Origin: a virus
Taxonomy: Duplodnaviria > Caudoviricetes
Direction: 5' to 3' (one strand)
Virus record (IMG/VR): IMGVR_UViG_3300007770_000001
Length of the DNA stretch: 64,000 nt
Shown here: piece by piece, positions 872 through 17,996 of the stretch
Position numbering within the stretch: position 1 is the first letter of the stretch
Layout: each line of letters opens with the position of its first letter
Position numbers and translations under genes: made by a program
The notes under the pieces: model-generated
What the model was told of the DNA's origin: nothing
Database searches by the model: none
Seen by the model: the letters and a program-made list of their open reading frames with translations, nothing else

Positions 872-1468
872 GTGTACCTGGTCGAGACCAACTTCCTGTT
901 CCTTGAGGTCCCCGACCTTGGGATCGTTCTTCGGAAGGGAGTACCCTCCTGGGTTGAAGAGGACGACTACCAGCGGAGTTCCTGCCTCCAGGAACTGGTC
1001 CGGATAGGGAACGCCCGAGCCACTCCCAAGTCAAGGTCTCGGTCCCAGCGGCCAGCGAAGCCCTCCTTGCGGACCCGGAAGAGGACTCCCCCCAAGAAGG
1101 TTGCTCCGACCCCCAAGGCCCCTGAAGCTGTTCTGACGGTAGCACAGGCACAGGAGCTCGCGGAGAGGGCGGCGGAGAAAGCCGTACAGCGCGTCCTGGA
1201 GAGCTTCCCTACGCAACCCCCCACCGGGCTTCTGGAAGCCGTACAGGGGCTGCAGGAGGCCCTTGGAGCCGTCCCCGGAGCCGTGTCCGCACCCACGGAT
1301 TTCCTTTCTCCCCGAACAAGAGGTCCTGCTCCTGAGCCTATGTTCATCCCTTCGGGTATCGTTGGTCCATCCAAGGAGGCGGAGCTCGAGATACAGAGCT
1401 CTGAGTCGGGCGGAGGGGTCGAAGATGCCGCCCAAGCTCTCCGACGGATGAAAAACCGGAGGGAATGA
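872..1468 (+). CDS. hypothetical protein, Pro/Ala-rich linker
   Basis: 198-aa GTG ORF abutting the previous stop; ATGA overlap with the actin gene. Confidence 0.6.
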   Translation: MYLVETNFLFLEVPDLGIVLRKGVPSWVEEDDYQRSSCLQELVRIGNARATPKSRSRSQRPAKPSLRTRKRTPPKKVAPTPKAPEAVLTVAQAQELAERAAEKAVQRVLESFPTQPPTGLLEAVQGLQEALGAVPGAVSAPTDFLSPRTRGPAPEPMFIPSGIVGPSKEAELEIQSSESGGGVEDAAQALRRMKNRRE

Positions 1469-2466
1469 TGACAGCCAAGGGCAGGGGTCTCGATATCGGG
1501 ACCATGAACCTGGTGGCCGCAAAGAGTGCGGCCAAGGACAAGGTGGAGACCTCTCGCGTGAGGGATGCCTTCCTCAGCCTCGAGGCAGGAGCCAAGAGAC
1601 GGCTTCGTCTCTCGGGCGTCAACTTCATCGATCGAGGGGAGGACGGGATCATCGTAGTCGGAGACGCCGCCCTGGAGATGGCCAACGTCTTCGGTCTGGA
1701 TGTCCGCCGCCCCCTACAGGGCGGGTTGATCTCCGCGGGTGAGATGGACGCCCTGGAGATCCTGGGCGCCATGATCCAGAACCTCCTCGGGAAGCCAACC
1801 GTCAAGGATGAGGTCTGCTACTTCTCTATCCCTGCCTCCCCTGTCGATGTGGATCGGGATACCGTCTACCACAAGGGCGTCTTCGAGCGGATCATCTCGG
1901 AATGCGGCTTCCGACCGATCGCTGCCAACGAGGCCATGGCCATCATCTTCTCGGAGACGGCCAAGGAGATGTTCTCCGGTCTGGCGTTCTCCTTTGGCTC
2001 CGGGATGTGCAACGTCGCTCTCTCCGTGAACGCTGTCAAGGGCCTCACGTTCTCCGTGGCGCGAGGCGGGGACTGGATCGACCAGGGAGCCGCCCGTGCC
2101 GTGGGGTCCACGAGCTCTCGGATGTGTGTCCTCAAAGAGGCTGGCATCGACCTCCTGAACCCCCAGGGACGGGAGCAAGAGGCTCTGGTGCTCTACTACA
2201 AGAGCCTCATCGAGTACGCCCTGGACGAGACGGCTCGAGAGTTCCAGAAGATCAAGGATCGGTTCGCTCTCCCGCGTCCCATCCCGCTCATCGTTTCTGG
2301 TGGCACCTCCAAGGCGGGCAACTTCTTGGAGTTCTTCACAAGGACCTTTGATTCTCGACGCCGTAGGTTCCCTATCACAATCTCGGAAGTGCGGCAGGCG
2401 TCTGAACCTCTGAATGCGGTGGCTCGGGGCCTTCTCATTCAGGCCCTGCAGGAATACGAGGACTGA
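1465..2466 (+). CDS. actin-like ATPase, volactin-like
   Basis: Phosphate-1 GLDIGTMN, phosphate-2 SFGSGMCNV, FSVARGGDWID, adenosine IVSGGTS, connect-2 EPLNAVARG. Confidence 0.9.
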   Translation: MMTAKGRGLDIGTMNLVAAKSAAKDKVETSRVRDAFLSLEAGAKRRLRLSGVNFIDRGEDGIIVVGDAALEMANVFGLDVRRPLQGGLISAGEMDALEILGAMIQNLLGKPTVKDEVCYFSIPASPVDVDRDTVYHKGVFERIISECGFRPIAANEAMAIIFSETAKEMFSGLAFSFGSGMCNVALSVNAVKGLTFSVARGGDWIDQGAARAVGSTSSRMCVLKEAGIDLLNPQGREQEALVLYYKSLIEYALDETAREFQKIKDRFALPRPIPLIVSGGTSKAGNFLEFFTRTFDSRRRRFPITISEVRQASEPLNAVARGLLIQALQEYED

Positions 2467-10378: not shown

Positions 10379-11172
10379 ACCAAGCGAGTCGGTCGGAGCT
10401 TCTCAAATCCTTGGAATGGTCGGGATCTCGCACTCTATGGAGCGTCGCTGGGGAGCCTCATACGGAGGTCTCCTGCTGTCCTCGTTGCCGAGGCTTTGAG
10501 ACAGTCCCCTCTCACTTCAAGGTGGGGGGCCCCCACTCCGGGTTCGCTACCGTGAATACACATCCGGACCATCTCGATGAGGTGGGGCACCAGGATGACT
10601 GTTCGTTGGCAGAGGCCATCAAGTCTCTGGAGACCGAACCTCAGATCTCCGAAGTCCTGACCCGCTCCTTCTGCGCCCTCACTGAGATGTGGGGCCGTCG
10701 CTACGACACTCCCTCAGATGATATCCCCGAGGTCTCCGAGGGAGAGCCCTTCGGTGCTCCTGTTGCGGTAGACGTGGGTCTTCTGGCAGAAGCCCAGACC
10801 CATCTGTTCGAGGTGGTCAAACACCTCCTCCCGGAGCTCTACGCGCAGATGACGAACGGAGGGGCTCCGGATGTTCCTCTTGCCAGGCCCCAAGAGAATC
10901 TGGTCGATTTGGACAAGCACCGGATCCAGACGGAGCTCGAGTTCCCCGACGAACAGGTCGCCTATGCCGAGTTCCTCTGGGGCCGCACCACCTTCGGGTA
11001 CAACCTGGCGATACGGGATCTGGAGCAGATGCGCAGAGGGAAGGATGACGGGTCTCTCCGGCCTCCGGAGACGTATCACGAGATCTTTCACCTGATCCGG
11101 AATCTCCGAGAGATGGCCTCCCACATCGCGCAGACCTACGGGTTGGAACCCATCCCAGAGGAGAAAGGCTGA
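10375..11172 (+). CDS. hypothetical protein
   Basis: ATGA overlap; 265 aa. Confidence 0.7.
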   Translation: MNQASRSELLKSLEWSGSRTLWSVAGEPHTEVSCCPRCRGFETVPSHFKVGGPHSGFATVNTHPDHLDEVGHQDDCSLAEAIKSLETEPQISEVLTRSFCALTEMWGRRYDTPSDDIPEVSEGEPFGAPVAVDVGLLAEAQTHLFEVVKHLLPELYAQMTNGGAPDVPLARPQENLVDLDKHRIQTELEFPDEQVAYAEFLWGRTTFGYNLAIRDLEQMRRGKDDGSLRPPETYHEIFHLIRNLREMASHIAQTYGLEPIPEEKG

Positions 11173-11756
11173 TGTACTCTACTTGGAAGGAGGGCCGCCT
11201 CACGAGGGGGGTCGTGACCCTCGATTGCTGCGGGGGGGTCTTGAACCACCTGACTGTGATCCTGGCCTACCATCCTGGAGATATCAGCGATAAGCCTGCC
11301 GTCATCCGAGAGGCTCCCGCAGGCCTGAGTTGGGGCTGGTCCGAGGATATTGCTCCTTTCCCGAAGGGCCATCCAGACCACCACAAGTCTCCGATGCGTG
11401 TCTGGCTGGATTCTCTCCCCGAGGAAGCCAAGAAGGAGACCATCTTCGAGCGCGCGACCCCGTATTGGAAGGCCCGCCCTGCGGTTGAGGTCAGTTCCCT
11501 CCTGTGGCGGAACAAGGAGCACTACAAGGAGCCCCTCCCTTCGGCGAAGTTCTGCCCTCACTGCGGAACCCCAGTCCCCGAGATACAACGTACCGACAAC
11601 CTCATAGGCCCTGTCTACAAGCCGTCCGCGGATGGGGACTACTGCGCGACCTGCGAGAGCCGAAGCGGATGTTGCTCATGTCTCCCCCCAACATTCCTCT
11701 GGGAGACAGTTCGTCCCGAGGTTACCCGCCAAACGGAGCCTTCTGATGGCACGTAA
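11172..11756 (+). CDS. hypothetical protein with C-terminal Zn-finger-like Cys motifs
   Basis: TGATG overlap; CPHC...CATC...CCSC. Confidence 0.65.
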   Translation: MYSTWKEGRLTRGVVTLDCCGGVLNHLTVILAYHPGDISDKPAVIREAPAGLSWGWSEDIAPFPKGHPDHHKSPMRVWLDSLPEEAKKETIFERATPYWKARPAVEVSSLLWRNKEHYKEPLPSAKFCPHCGTPVPEIQRTDNLIGPVYKPSADGDYCATCESRSGCCSCLPPTFLWETVRPEVTRQTEPSDGT

Positions 11757-11973
11757 CTTCAGCTTCCTTCCTGAGCACGGGGAAGGTGGACATATCGACT
11801 TGACTCTCCTGTCCCCCCTCGAGTACCTGCGGAACCGGGATGAGGAGGACCCCCAACCCCGGATGGCCCTGCTGACGGTACGGGGACGGGACAATGAGCT
11901 GACAGCAGTGGAGCTGGAAAAGCTCGGGCGGGCATGTTTCCGTTACGCCCGGCTTATCCGTGATGGGAGGTAG
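11746..11973 (+). CDS. hypothetical protein
   Basis: GGAG before ATG 11746 in the 11632 frame. Confidence 0.55.
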   Translation: MARNFSFLPEHGEGGHIDLTLLSPLEYLRNRDEEDPQPRMALLTVRGRDNELTAVELEKLGRACFRYARLIRDGR

Positions 11974-12041
11974 TTTCAGGGCTGGGGGAAAACCCCGACC
12001 TCTGGAGTGAAAACTCCCAAACTACTTTCGATCTGGAGTTT
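11969..12041 (+). other. candidate multi-stem intergenic RNA structure
   Basis: Closing stem 11969-76 with 12019-26 enclosing GGGG-GAAAA-CCCC and GGAGT-GAAA-ACTCC hairpins. Confidence 0.4.
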
Positions 12042-12085
12042 CCTTTCTGCTCTGTGGCGTTTACAATAGAAGTGCGGAGGTCCCT

Positions 12086-12265
12086 ATGTTGGTTTCTTCG
12101 TGCACGCCAACCTGGACAGAAAGACGGAACCTGAACCTGCTCTCGGAGCGGGAGAGCACCATCTACATCATGGGCCGCATTGCCCGTGGCGAGGATGTCC
12201 CCGCTTCGGTATGGGAGTTCCTGGTCCGGAAGAACCTGATCCAAGGTCCGGTGGCCAACGCCTGA
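12086..12265 (+). CDS. small hypothetical protein (59 aa)
   Basis: GGAGG SD; MLVSSCTPTWTERRNL... Confidence 0.55.
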   Translation: MLVSSCTPTWTERRNLNLLSERESTIYIMGRIARGEDVPASVWEFLVRKNLIQGPVANA

Positions 12266-12310
12266 CAATCCTGTGTCCTGTGCTGAATCCCCGTTCAGTT
12301 GGAGCATTCT

Positions 12311-12995
12311 ATGTCTCTCATCGTTGAGATCAGGGCTGCGGAAGGAGGAGAGGACGCCAAGCTCCTTGTCCTTCAGCAGTTGTCCGTGTACTCCAAGTTT
12401 GAGGCTCGGGGGTCCCTTTGACTTCACGTTGGAAGTTGTAGCTGAACGACCAGGCTACATTGCACTGAGGGTCACGGGGAAGGACGCACGGAGAGCCTTC
12501 CGCAACGAGGCTGGAGGCCACCGCTGGCAACGGGTTCCCCCGACGGAGAAGCGAGGGAGAGTCCACACGTCCACGATCACCGTGGCGGTGCTTCGAGAAC
12601 CCACTCCATCCCAGGTTCGGCTGGATCCCAAGGACCTGGATATCACGACCTGCCGTGGTTCCGGCAAGGGTGGGCAACACAAGAACGTGACGGACAGCGC
12701 TGTCCAGGTCAAACACAAGCCCTCTGGCATCATCGTACGGGCAGAGGCCGAGAGGTCTCAGAACCAGAATAAGGAGCTCGCCCTGGGCGTCCTTCGGGCC
12801 AAGCTCCAGGAAGTCCGTACAGAGGGCGAGAACACCCGTAGAAACGCTCGTAGAAGATCCCAGGTAGGCTGCGGGGCCCGCGGTGACAAGCGCCGTACAG
12901 TACGCCTACAGGCCGGCCAGGTCGTGGACCACATCACCGGGAGGAGGACCTCAGCGAAGTCCTATCTCAGGGGACAGCTGGAGAAGCTGTGGTAG
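12311..12995 (+). CDS. class-I peptide chain release factor (RF1-type PxT, GGQ, no domain 1), expressed via +1 frameshift; about 227 aa
   Basis: Frame 0 gives MSLIVEIRAAEGGEDAKLL...GSL* (RF domain-2 start); +1 frame gives ...NEAGGHRWQRVPPTEKRGRVHTS...GSGKGGQHKNVTDSAV...RSQNQNKELAL. Confidence 0.9.
12408..12422 (+). promoter_or_regulatory. prfB-type programmed +1 frameshift cassette
   Basis: GGGGG-TCC-CTT-TGA-C: internal SD, 3-nt spacer, in-frame CUU followed by UGA-C. Confidence 0.85.
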
Positions 12996-13563
12996 GGGGG
13001 ACAGCGCAGGTCAAGCACGTCTCCACACAGCCAGACTCTCCCTTGAAGAGCTTGGCATCGCAGGACTCAGCCCAGCAGCAGTTCTCCGAGGTTGGGTCCT
13101 GTCCACACGCAGCTTCCCATCCGAGACAGGAGGCCCAGGAGAGGTCAGGACACTGAGCCTCACAGTAAGCCTCGTTGTTCGTCTCCCGCGCGAGGGGAGG
13201 GAGTCCCACATAGCTCTCAGGCAGGAACGTGATGTTCGAGAAGTCCGGACGAGCAGTTCCCGGACTCTCCGCTCCGCCAGGTCCGTCGTTCGGAGGTCCG
13301 GGAGGGGTGCCTGAGCACACGCAGTTGGACTTGCAGTCGGTCTCGCAGTCCCCGTCGCAGAGGACCATGAAGCAGCACGCCGTATGATCTCCGGCGAGAC
13401 ACGCCACGTGGTAGCCTGCGCAGTCCCAGAACCCCAGGGAATCACACTCAGCTTTGCATCGAGAGTCGAGATTCGAGCAGTCCGGATTCCCAACGGAAGG
13501 GGTGGCGGGGGCCGGGGGCGCTGAGGCCGTCGTGTAGCACGCCAGGACAAGAGCAAGGATCAT
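12967..13563 (-). CDS. Cys-rich putative lipoprotein with two internal disulfide-type repeats
   Basis: MILALVLAC lipobox-like start; duplicated C-x3-C-x7-C-x6-C-x7/8-CC-x4-C pattern. Confidence 0.7.
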   Translation of the reverse strand: MILALVLACYTTASAPPAPATPSVGNPDCSNLDSRCKAECDSLGFWDCAGYHVACLAGDHTACCFMVLCDGDCETDCKSNCVCSGTPPGPPNDGPGGAESPGTARPDFSNITFLPESYVGLPPLARETNNEAYCEAQCPDLSWASCLGWEAACGQDPTSENCCWAESCDAKLFKGESGCVETCLTCAVPPTTASPAVP

Positions 13564-13594
13564 GAGATACCCCGGAGGTCCAAGATCCACCAAC

Positions 13595-14056
13595 CTACCC
13601 GAGCGGGGCGTTGGCCGCCCAGAGCTTCTCGAACTCTTCCTTGAAGGCCCGGACCACATAGCTGATGCGGATGATGACGAAGTTTTCCGCATTCCGCTCG
13701 GTGGCGCTCTTGGTGAAGTTGTAGGAACCTGTGAGTACAGCCTTGGGCGCGTTCCGACCGTCTCCGATCAGGAACTTGTTGTGCATGATCCCCTTCTGGT
13801 GATCCCTTCGCACGTCCACACCAGCTGCCTCGAGCTTCTCGTCGTCCGCGTATTTGTTCCCTGCCTGGGTCTTGTCCATAAGCACGCGGACGACGACTCC
13901 CCGCTGGTGTGCTCGGATGATCGCGTCCGCGATAGGGTCATGGGTCAGCGAGTAGATGGCCACGTCGCAGAAGGTATCACATCCGTCTATGAATCCGACC
14001 ACAACCTCGTCGGCGCCGCGATCTGGGCTGAAGTAAGTGCTGGCGTATCGTCCCAT
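13595..14056 (-). CDS. phospholipase D-family (Nuc-like) nuclease, single HKD
   Basis: YFSP, VAIYSLT, MHNKFLIGD, TGSYNFTKSA, NAEN. Confidence 0.9.
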   Translation of the reverse strand: MGRYASTYFSPDRGADEVVVGFIDGCDTFCDVAIYSLTHDPIADAIIRAHQRGVVVRVLMDKTQAGNKYADDEKLEAAGVDVRRDHQKGIMHNKFLIGDGRNAPKAVLTGSYNFTKSATERNAENFVIIRISYVVRAFKEEFEKLWAANAPLG

Positions 14057-14103
14057 GCGCCCCTCTCTGTATAGCCGAGGTAACTGTGGCATAGGAGAAA
14101 AAC

Positions 14104-14543
14104 ATGAGGATCCTTTTGGTTCGCCACGGTGAGTCCCTGGCCAACGTCGATCGTTCCGTCTACCTATCCACAGCGGACCATGCCGTGCCCCTGTCGGACC
14201 GCAGGTCACGGACGAGCATATCCAGGACCTCACCGACGGGGTCCGGAAGAAGTTCCGGGATCTTCTGTGCGAGAGGGAGCTCACGGAGTGGCTCAAGATC
14301 TACGAGAAAGATCTCACCCCGGATGAGCGTCTGGTGCAAGGGCACCACTACGTCTACGAGGCCCGGCTCGTAGACGACCAGGCTGTCCTTTGGGAGGTTG
14401 GCTTCGGAAGAGGGCATGTCACTCGGAGGGATTTCATTCGAAAATTCGACTTCGATCCTCTCGAAGTCCTCAAGGAGCGACTCCAGGCCAAGACGGACGC
14501 CGCGGATGCTCAAGACCTCTTCAAAGAGGTCGGACACCTCTGA
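14104..14543 (+). pseudogene. chimeric remnant: histidine phosphatase N-terminus joined out of frame to an unrelated 3' coding segment
   Basis: MRILLVRHGESLANVD...DHAVPLSDR (RHG motif) stops resembling the family near 14203; a different frame (about 14202-14543) is protein-like but has no start. Confidence 0.6.
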
Positions 14544-14558
14544 CCATAGGATACCTCC

Positions 14559-14882
14559 ATGGCTGAAAGACTCACCCTCAAGACCTACTACGCCCTCGTC
14601 GACCGACTTGCAATCGAGGCAGAGGCACGGAAGGAGGCATGGCCTCGAGAACGCGGCTACAAGGGTGGCTTGGAGTTCTCCCACGAGGTCGTCCAGGAGG
14701 AGGAGTCTCCCCATACCCAGGACCCCATTCTTGGTCTGGTTCTCCTCTCGTTCGCCTCCCGACCCGGTATTGCTTGGGAGGACTGCCCGATGCACAATCC
14801 GACCCGGGACTTCGCTCGGAACACCAGAATCCTGGCTCGTGAGGCCCTCATCTGGGATGTGTATCAACGCATGACGATTTGA
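14559..14882 (+). CDS. hypothetical protein
   Basis: 107-aa ORF, AGGA upstream. Confidence 0.6.
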   Translation: MAERLTLKTYYALVDRLAIEAEARKEAWPRERGYKGGLEFSHEVVQEEESPHTQDPILGLVLLSFASRPGIAWEDCPMHNPTRDFARNTRILAREALIWDVYQRMTI

Positions 14883-14883
14883 G

Positions 14884-14911
14884 GTTTCCTCACTCCTCCC
14901 AGCGACGTAAC
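14884..14911 (+). promoter_or_regulatory. promoter-like motif copy
   Basis: GTTTCC-N14-GACGTAAC then AAGGAG and ATG 14936. Confidence 0.75.
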
Positions 14912-14935
14912 GGTAGGGAAGGAAGGAGAAACCTC

Positions 14936-15031
14936 ATGGCCCAGATCGCCGACCAGATCGCCACTCGCCTCCTCGCGGCCTCCCGCGCCTACTACGGTGG
15001 CCGCGAGCCCTGTGGGCTTTCAGGATTCTGA
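14936..15031 (+). pseudogene. orphaned 5' fragment of NAD-dependent DNA ligase (31 aa)
   Basis: MAQIADQIATRLLAASRAYYGG parallels [22 protein letters not shown] at 16052; truncated where the endonuclease gene begins. Confidence 0.8.
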
Positions 15032-16000: not shown

Positions 16001-17149
<1,149 letters not shown>

Positions 17150-17177: not shown

Positions 17178-17201
17178 AGTCTTGAGGAAGGAGTGACCAA
17201 C

Positions 17202-17996
17202 ATGTTCCAGGTGCCCACCAACTGCCCCTCCTGTGGTTTCGAGCTCGAGATGGACGGAGGATACCTGAAGTGCTGCGGGCCCACGTGCCCGGCGCAGGTA
17301 GTCGGTTCCCTCAACCGGTGGGTGGGGAAGCTCCGCATCCTCAACATCGGGAACGCTCTGATCCAGGCCCTGGTCGATGCCGGGCGTGTGTCGGATATCT
17401 CTGGCCTGTACAGGCTGGAAGAGTCCTGGCTGCGCGAGTTCGAGATCGATGGCCGCAAGGTGGGCGGAAACGCCCGGCGCGTGGTGGCCTCCCTGAACGC
17501 AGCGCGGGATATCCCCGTCGACATGTTCGTGGGGAGCCTCGGGATTCCTCTCTGCGGCCGCAAGATGGTCAGCATCCTGGTCGACGCCGGCTACGACGAC
17601 CTCAGCAAGCTCGCCAAGGTCACGACTGCTCAGATGGAAGCGGTCCCCGGGTTCGGCGCCGAGCGCGCTCGTAGCTTCCGTGCCGGCTTCGATGCATGCC
17701 GCTCTCTGATGCTCCAGATCATGGCCTCCGGAGTCGACGTGATCGCTCCGGTCCGCGCGGTGGCTACCGGAGATGCGATGGCCGGCCAGGCCGTGTGCTT
17801 CACGGGTGTCCGTGACAAGGAGGCTTCCGCGGCCATCGTGGATCAGGGCGGCAAGATCGCCAGCGGCGTGTCCAAGAACACCACCCTGTTGGTCGCGAAG
17901 AACCCCGCCTCCACCAGCGGCAAGGCCAAGAAGGCTCGCGCCCTGGGTATCGAGATCATCAGCCAGGCCGAGATGCGGTCCCGGCTCGGCCTCTGA
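17202..17996 (+). CDS. ligA: NAD-dependent DNA ligase, C-terminal part (Zn finger, HhH, BRCT)
   Basis: PTNCPSC...CCGPTCPAQ, LGIPLCG, VPGFG, VCFTG...GVSKNTTLLV...GKAKKARALGIEII. Confidence 0.9.
   Translation: MFQVPTNCPSCGFELEMDGGYLKCCGPTCPAQVVGSLNRWVGKLRILNIGNALIQALVDAGRVSDISGLYRLEESWLREFEIDGRKVGGNARRVVASLNAARDIPVDMFVGSLGIPLCGRKMVSILVDAGYDDLSKLAKVTTAQMEAVPGFGAERARSFRAGFDACRSLMLQIMASGVDVIAPVRAVATGDAMAGQAVCFTGVRDKEASAAIVDQGGKIASGVSKNTTLLVAKNPASTSGKAKKARALGIEIISQAEMRSRLGL

Follow-up and report, generated by a model that had tools for sequence, protein, structure and literature searches.

A short RF1-type release factor gene of huge phages and Myxococcota, predicted to be expressed through a prfB-like +1 frameshift site with a labile stop codon

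Why should a phage gene whose product carries the stop-codon-reading residues of RF1 be gated by UGA, a codon for which no reading by RF1-type factors is known? Textbooks treat programmed +1 frameshifting at CUU-UGA as a peculiarity of prfB alone. The question arises from a locus in the window, by which we mean the whole 64 kb stretch of viral DNA analysed here. The original prediction for this locus was of a UGA sensor placed in front of a release factor of about 227 aa that has an RF1-type PxT loop and lacks domain 1. It offered cross-regulation by RF2, an altered specificity that includes UGA, and ribosome rescue as possible roles without choosing between them, and suggested that the locus could be an undescribed phage translation-control circuit.

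Little in the literature prepares the reader for such a gene. The prfB gate carries TGA in 98.6% of 8,164 genomes and TAG in 0, and the same 2025 survey, which covers more than 12,000 genomes, reports prfA without any programmed frameshift (PMC12421855). A 2016 review called both a UAG/RF1 counterpart and a version with an in-frame stop unknown, and the one case that it cites is a giant-virus eRF1 (PMC5009743). Papers on phage release factors make no mention of frameshifting, and our literature search found no published description of the short release factor family reported below. The eRF1 gene of Mimivirus and Megavirus is reportedly expressed through readthrough plus frameshifting. It resembles the present gene in being a viral release factor gene expressed via recoding at stops, but it is of eukaryote type and belongs to amoebal giant viruses, and its protein and signals are unrelated to those of the short factor.

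The short release factor gene lies on the + strand of the window as two overlapping ORFs, ORF0 (12311-12421) and then a +1 frame (12420-12995), with the following features:

12301-12304, + strand: ribosome-binding site GGAG, 6 nt 5′ of the ORF0 ATG, read from the DNA
12311-12421, + strand: ORF0 in frame 0, 36 codons then TGA, matched to prfA-model positions 106-135
12407-12412, + strand: Shine-Dalgarno (SD)-like stimulator CGGGGG, followed by the 3 nt spacer TCC (12413-12415) before the shift codon
12416-12422, + strand: +1 shift site CTT TGA C, with P-site CUU at 12416-12418 and A-site UGA at 12419-12421, then C
12420-12995, + strand: +1-frame part, 191 aa then TAG, comprising the remainder of domain 2, the GGQ-bearing domain 3 and domain 4 (prfA-model 157-334)
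12528-12572, + strand: codon-recognition loop QRVPPTEKRGRVHTS, with the PxT tripeptide PPT at 12537-12545
12669-12677, + strand: GGQ catalytic motif, invariant across the family
12993-12995, + strand: TAG (a codon of RF1 type) that terminates the gene itself, read from the DNA

A single 4-base step at CTT-T (CTT-T-GAC) joins ORF0 to the +1 frame and gives a protein of 227 aa, the junction reading CGGGGG-TCC-CTT-TGA-C. The UGA at 12419-12421, which terminates ORF0, is the sensor codon, and the C that follows it is a weak context. The ORF0 peptide starts MSLIVEIRAAEGGEDAKLLV and ends ARGSL; within domain 2 it contributes the first strand and then alpha-5 (IVEIRAAEGGEDAKLLV...), a helix whose tip is GGEDA. 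In RF1 and RF2 the tip of this helix contacts the first base of the stop codon, and conservation of the ORF0 segment extends over more than 120 loci. As the gene is laid out, the full-length short factor is predicted to be obtainable from the window solely via a programmed +1 frameshift at SD-N3-CUU-UGA-C, within domain 2. Positions 12200-13050 were found identical and gap-free in contigs of four marine or seawater metagenome runs, which may be the window's own source samples, and a comparison of window DNA 11000-15000 with GenBank phages returned no match.

The joined protein behaves as one release factor that has lost its front. It gives a single continuous Pfam PCRF match that starts at position 101 and reaches the last position, 194, with the RF-1 domain after it; the part of the profile that represents domain 1 (positions 1-100) has no counterpart, and the protein begins at prfA-model position 106. 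The predicted length of about 227 aa and the loss of domain 1 were therefore correct. Against the NCBIfam models the factor scores 182 bits for prfA, 120 for prfB, 80 for prfH and 35 for ArfB, and matches to PDB chain sequences follow the same order, with 128-147 bits for RF1, about 89 for RF2 and 51 for PrfH. An AlphaFold2 model of the 227-aa protein (pLDDT 84.9) superposes over all 227 residues on free RF1 (1rq0_A, TM 0.82) and on RF2 (2ihr, TM 0.85); within it, the ORF0 segment forms a strand (2-11) and a helix (14-33) at pLDDT 81-96. On these matches, the window factor is a predicted class-I release factor of the RF1 lineage, made of domains 2-4 without domain 1, and is placed nearer to RF1 than to RF2, PrfH or ArfB. 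With domain 1 missing, it probably acts independently of RF3 and of contacts with the L11 stalk.

Likeness to RF1 has clear limits. The decoding residues, the GGQ motif and the fold of domains 2-4 are common to both, whereas the window factor lacks about 105 residues of domain 1, is basic where RF1 is acidic or neutral, and is encoded by a recoded gene. The tripeptide of the short factors is PPT in place of the PAT or PVT of RF1, and the alpha-5 tip carries Asp in place of Glu. The prfA equivalog cut-offs are missed by a wide distance (182 bits against 400 for NF001859, and 177 against 423 for TIGR00019). By sequence criteria, the short factor thus falls outside the prfA equivalogs, and it is not assignable to PrfH, to ArfB or to the release factors of phage code-change modules, each of which is considered below.

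The window gene is one member of a family. We gathered 75 viral loci from IMG/VR and 67 loci from bacterial genomes, of which 128 were analysable. The carriers are huge phages in IMG/VR (90-480 kb), Myxococcota, a few Betaproteobacteria and one Cupriavidus plasmid; in the Myxococcota the gene is chromosomal, in Nannocystis, Minicystis, Pyxidicoccus, Kofleriaceae and Haliangiales. The short factors of several Nannocystis species form one clade, which suggests vertical descent. The suggestion of an undescribed phage circuit therefore holds in so far as we found no published account of it, and fails in so far as the gene is not specific to phages. The phylogeny that had been proposed as a check was built from 118 distinct family proteins together with RF1 and RF2 from carrier genomes, over some 220 residues and rooted on RF2; it recovered the family as monophyletic (support 0.92) and grouped it with RF1 (support 1.0).

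Canonical prfA, prfB and prfC are all present in the five bacterial carriers examined, so that the short factor is a third codon-reading factor there. Five huge-phage records, four of them complete, were searched for a second codon-reading release factor, including an RF2-type factor of their own, and none was found; the short factor stood alone. Among 301 genomes of the order to which Variovorax belongs, only canonical prfA was detected, apart from the Variovorax genome already known as a carrier. The family loci have no neighbouring gene in common, and sharing of neighbours is limited to one close phage group.

A search of the databases returned 4,036 homologues at E <= 1e-10. The entries P0003-P0122 are 170-230 aa long and start in the +1 frame without the N-terminus encoded by ORF0 (P0003, for example, has 198 aa). 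This suggests that many annotations of the family are truncated at the N-terminus, with gene callers starting in the +1 frame, and a practical upshot is that thousands of entries for short release factors appear to lack their first segment.

The frameshift cassette recurs throughout the family. A +1 shift is required in 95 of the 128 analysable loci, and the codon before the stop is CTT in all 95. In the alignment the shift falls at three positions: site 34, that of the window (82 loci, including one deletion variant numbered 30), site 44 (seven loci, including one at 49) and site 50 (six loci). Within 15 nt upstream, 72 of 87 distinct cassettes have an SD-like core 4 nt or more in length, and in 47 of the 87 exactly 3 nt separate GGAGG, GGGAG or GGGGG from CTT. 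At site 34, the stop is followed by C in 58 of 75 cassettes. Members without any gate are few, about 4 in 130 (L015, L090, L026 and L027), and a stop-codon gate is kept by 97%. The split gene is also found in chromosomes of isolates, as in Minicystis rosea with CGG-AGT-GGG-CTT-TGA-C. With CTT before the stop at 95 of 95 junctions, far beyond chance, the frame break is predicted to be programmed. The C after the stop, with the near-absence of TAA described below, indicates apparent selection for a weak, titratable stop.

Each element of this cassette is familiar from prfB, from the SD-like element and its 3-nt spacer to the P-site CUU, the in-frame stop and the C after it, and in both genes the product is a class-I release factor. 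The prfB genes of carriers themselves contain this cassette, as CGGAGG-CAT-CTT-TGA-C in Nannocystis and as GGAGG-TAT-CTT-TGA-C in Variovorax, and because these genes use it, the ribosomes of the carriers do shift on it. The differences are as informative. In prfB the shift occurs at codon 26, in domain 1, whereas in the window gene it follows codon 36 and lies in domain 2, at about RF1 residue 140-150, where the shift site aligns at or next to a conserved Trp of RF1 domain 2. Unlike prfB, the family has three alternative shift positions; the stop is UGA or UAG (64 to 30), and some members have an in-frame UGA instead. The product is of the PxT (RF1) type, whereas that of prfB is SPF, and by its sequence determinants it should not read the UGA of its own gate.

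This last difference is the heart of the matter, and it extends beyond the window. The predicted PxT loop is present as PPT, every diagnostic residue of the window factor is RF1-type and its gate codon is UGA, so that the original reading of a sensor at odds with its effector is borne out for this gene. In the family, the loop reads QRVPPTE without exception (118 of 118 sequences), and the RF1-diagnostic decoding residues (the Gln before the loop, V-P-x-T-E and the Thr of HTS) are RF1-type in all 118; a further diagnostic position, I/V-H-T-S, is RF1-type as well. We therefore predict that the effector of the family is a reader of UAA and UAG. Some features are peculiar to the family, namely the middle Pro of PPT (as in SPF), the Asp at the alpha-5 tip (Glu in RF1) and a basic loop flank, K/R-R/K.

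Set against this constancy, the gate codon is labile: across all 95 shift sites it is TGA in 64, TAG in 30 and TAA in one. On the tree, at least 19 changes of gate codon (Fitch count) are needed among the 77 distinct site-34 members, about as many as when the labels are shuffled (mean 21.7, minimum 15), so that the gate codon has no phylogenetic signal; since the tree rests on some 220 residues, some of the inferred switches may be errors of topology. Sister pairs that differ in gate codon include L122/L146 (78% identity, support 0.99) and L013/L084 (support 0.98). A search for decoding residues that co-vary with the gate codon found one associated column alone, whose residue comes from the shift site. 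Judged from these alignments, the mismatch between sensor and effector appears real and general, and is to be seen as one of the states that a labile gate takes, not as a wire designed to run from RF2 to RF1; unlike in bacterial RF2, the gate codon is predicted not to be matched to the factor.

A second kind of gate occurs in 31 of the 128 analysable loci, many of them low-GC phages, in which an in-frame TGA takes the place of the shift site. Nine members share an in-frame TGA in one alignment column, beside the position at which their closest relatives have the site-44 shift site. These are the Cupriavidus plasmid (L135), Variovorax sp. WDL1 (L143), two metagenome-assembled genomes (MAGs) and five phage contigs (L137, L141, L068, L069, L071, L073 and L074), and their genes are otherwise intact. 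The Cupriavidus plasmid and Variovorax sp. WDL1 come from bacteria whose use of the standard genetic code is established, and in the high-GC phage loci L007, L069 and L071 the neighbouring genes also terminate with TGA. The nine members are candidates for programmed UGA readthrough. In these genes, as in L007, readthrough would be needed, a second route by which production of the factor would hinge on failed termination by RF2.

The low-GC relatives invite comparison with the RF1 and RF2 genes of phage code-change modules. As in those modules, the release factor gene is found in large phages and, in some low-GC relatives, adjoins suppressor tRNA genes. An amber-suppressor-type tRNA (anticodon CTA) lies 1-3 kb from the release factor gene in L037, L049, L060 and L062 and in G017-G019; the release factor genes of these relatives carry a pair of in-frame TGAs or else a CTT-TAG shift site, and the terminase genes of three such phages are 600-aa frames free of internal stops. 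ARAGORN predicted tmRNA genes near the release factor gene in two low-GC phage loci (L049:225-579 and L057:924-1297). Crude six-frame ORF coverage did not discriminate the genetic code of the 6.5-kb loci. The window itself differs from a code-change module: its genes follow the standard code and end mostly in TGA (41 of 62, against 16 with TAG and five with TAA), and no tRNA gene was found within its 64 kb. The paper describing the code-change module mentions neither a frameshift gate nor the loss of domain 1 (Borges et al., bioRxiv 10.1101/2021.08.26.457843).

What, then, could a gate that its product should not read be for? The explanation that we favour, and hold to be somewhat probable, is that the gate is a termination-load sensor, an open loop running via host RF2, that switches on a back-up RF1-type factor. 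By analogy with prfB, when CUU occupies the P site and UGA the A site, host RF2 would terminate and release a 36-aa peptide; alternatively, at the same pause, peptidyl-tRNA-Leu would slip to UUU and the factor would be completed. The slower the RF2-dependent termination, the higher the yield of factor should be. From its decoding residues, the product is expected to read UAA and UAG and not UGA, and because these residues are RF1-type it should not act on its own UGA; the loop would then be open in the phage of the window, where host RF2 activity, and not the factor itself, would set the level of the factor. Cross-regulation by RF2, one of the options initially raised, thus fits the window gene, with the proviso that its UGA gate is one state among those that the family displays. 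Across the family, the conserved property would be that synthesis needs failed termination at a weak, non-UAA stop. Such a gate would report the termination load or capacity of the cell and turn on a back-up RF1-type factor, which in the window would serve the 21 of 62 genes (34%) that end in TAG or TAA. A related idea, that the phage avoids TGA stops and hence tolerates a shut-off of RF2, was rejected, as TGA terminates 41 of the 62 window genes.

The terminators of the short factor genes bear on this explanation without deciding it. TAA is the sole stop that both canonical release factors read. Among loci with GC >= 0.6, to which the comparison was confined, TAA ends 28 of 57 short factor genes but, of the genes next to them, 22 of 241 (odds ratio 9.6, p = 6e-11). 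This bias fits a gene that needs to terminate whichever release factor is short, although high expression could simply account for it. An apparent tendency of the gene's own terminator to complement its gate codon proved to be an effect of the TAA enrichment, and the direct contrast was not significant (p = 0.35).

Two further observations sit uneasily with the favoured sensor of termination load. The strong basicity of the factor, as in charge-altered RF2 mutants, means that it may also read UGA, and free interchange of UGA and UAG would be odd if the two gates sensed different factors, being better accommodated by an attenuator or by a factor of relaxed specificity. The latter is the most serious rival, which we regard as unlikely yet credible: a short basic factor that reads UGA, UAG and UAA alike, so that any gate would close a prfB-like autoregulatory loop. 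Interchange of UGA and UAG gates in front of an invariant loop is exactly what such a factor predicts. The window protein has a net charge of +19 and a pI of 10.75, and the family medians are +9 and about 10, whereas RF1 and RF2 encoded in the same genomes mostly show a pI of 5.3-7.8 over domains 2-4. The middle Pro of PPT, the alpha-5 Asp and the basic loop flank, all specific to the family, point in the same direction.

No natural omnipotent bacterial-type release factor is known to us (see also PMC7530605), and this counts against relaxed specificity. A study of RF2 charge mutants points the other way: charge-reversal mutants of RF2, with changes far from the tripeptide, acquire the reading of UAG and UGG, and neutralizing or reversing the negative charge of RF2 made release at UAG 30- to 70-fold faster and strengthened binding to UGG complexes (PMC7530605). 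The same omnipotent mutants are, however, toxic through termination on UGG (PMC7530605). In favour of relaxed specificity, the closed loop of prfB never has TAG (0 of 8,164 genomes; PMC12421855); on the other side, all known RF1-specificity residues are RF1-type in 118 of 118 members. In its strongest form, in which the family would be a natural omnipotent, RF3-independent emergency release factor that is produced when termination stalls at a stop specific to either RF1 or RF2, reads UAA, UAG and UGA and silences itself at whichever gate codon it carries, the proposal strikes us as unlikely. Were it correct, the members with an in-frame UGA would be the readthrough-autoregulated release factor genes once postulated for RF2. 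To our knowledge, such genes were postulated decades ago and have never been found.

The gate could also be a plain attenuator, a shift site that fixes a low yield or blocks expression in the wrong context, in which the identity of the stop has no regulatory meaning. This would explain why the gate codon carries no phylogenetic signal (19 changes against 21.7 with shuffled labels) and why both the type and the position of the gate vary, with three shift positions and in-frame variants. A stop without meaning does not readily explain why TAA occurs in just one of 95 sites or why 58 of 75 site-34 cassettes have C after the stop, nor why the whole prfB-type cassette is retained together with its SD spacing. 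If a fixed low yield were all that was needed, a weak promoter or ribosome-binding site would achieve it more simply, yet a stop-codon gate is retained in 97% of members; we consider plain attenuation improbable.

A codon-independent rescue factor, acting like PrfH, ArfB or ICT1 on stalled, damaged or non-stop ribosomes, was among the roles put forward at the outset and now looks very improbable. PrfH, of the RtcB2-PrfH ribosome repair module, has an altered decoding loop and an RtcB partner. Like PrfH, the window factor is a short class-I release factor homologue that has no domain 1 and keeps GGQ, and like ArfB and ICT1 it is basic; being made upon failed termination would also suit a rescue role. 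Its loop, however, is a canonical PxT, and its score against the PrfH model TIGR03072 (80 bits) is below the cut-off of 166.65. The ORFs flanking the window gene gave no match to RtcB, and no neighbour family is common to the loci, so that neither this partner nor any other conserved neighbour supports the comparison. ArfB and ICT1 have no domain other than that with GGQ, followed by a basic C-terminal tail, whereas the window factor has the codon-reading domains 2 and 4, and only its GGQ region is matched by the ArfB model (35 bits against a cut-off of 100). Above all, PrfH, ArfB and ICT1 have lost or altered their stop-reading elements, whereas the short factors keep both loop and alpha-5 tip unchanged, the loop in 118 of 118 sequences, although they otherwise share just 32-69% identity.

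That the frame break is a lesion in a pseudogene or an assembly error, as splitting by gene callers and database entries starting in the +1 frame (such as the 198-aa P0003) might suggest, is effectively ruled out by the CTT-stop junction in 95 phage and isolate loci with both halves conserved as protein and no other lesions, and by the identical, gap-free contigs from four runs (possibly the source samples).

Release specificity and shifting are, for all members of the family, predictions from motifs and from likeness to prfB, and they lend themselves to work at the bench, as the family occurs in huge phages and in cultivable myxobacteria. It supplies an RF1-lineage factor with UGA gates, UAG gates and in-frame UGA gates, and so raises the questions of whether a gate codon must match the specificity of its factor, whether a factor without domain 1 terminates free of RF3, and why cells and phages should keep a third codon-reading release factor.

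The surroundings of the gene in the window are sparsely annotated, and the large genes of the window have almost no match in PHROG or Pfam. A 1012-aa protein of the window has a full-length homologue with 45% identity on the IMG/VR contig that carries the closest relative of the release factor, which marks the window as the same kind of element and bears on its phage nature. Immediately 5′ of the release factor gene, a 59-aa ORF (12086-12265, + strand) has no Pfam or PHROG match, and a similar peptide precedes the release factor gene in L002. A convergent Cys-rich ORF with a lipoprotein-like leader (12967-13692, - strand) overlaps the last 29 nt of the gene and has no Pfam match. A PLD-like (HKD) nuclease-family protein is encoded at 13595-14296 (- strand; PF13091, E = 9e-26; phrog_12711). 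A NAD-dependent DNA ligase is encoded in two adjoining ORFs on the + strand, the first with the adenylation and OB domains (16019-17149) and the second with HhH and BRCT (17193-17996). Lastly, the ORF at 1465-2466 (+ strand) encodes an actin-fold protein that matches the Pfam family Volactin (PF25216) over its full length (E = 4e-70).
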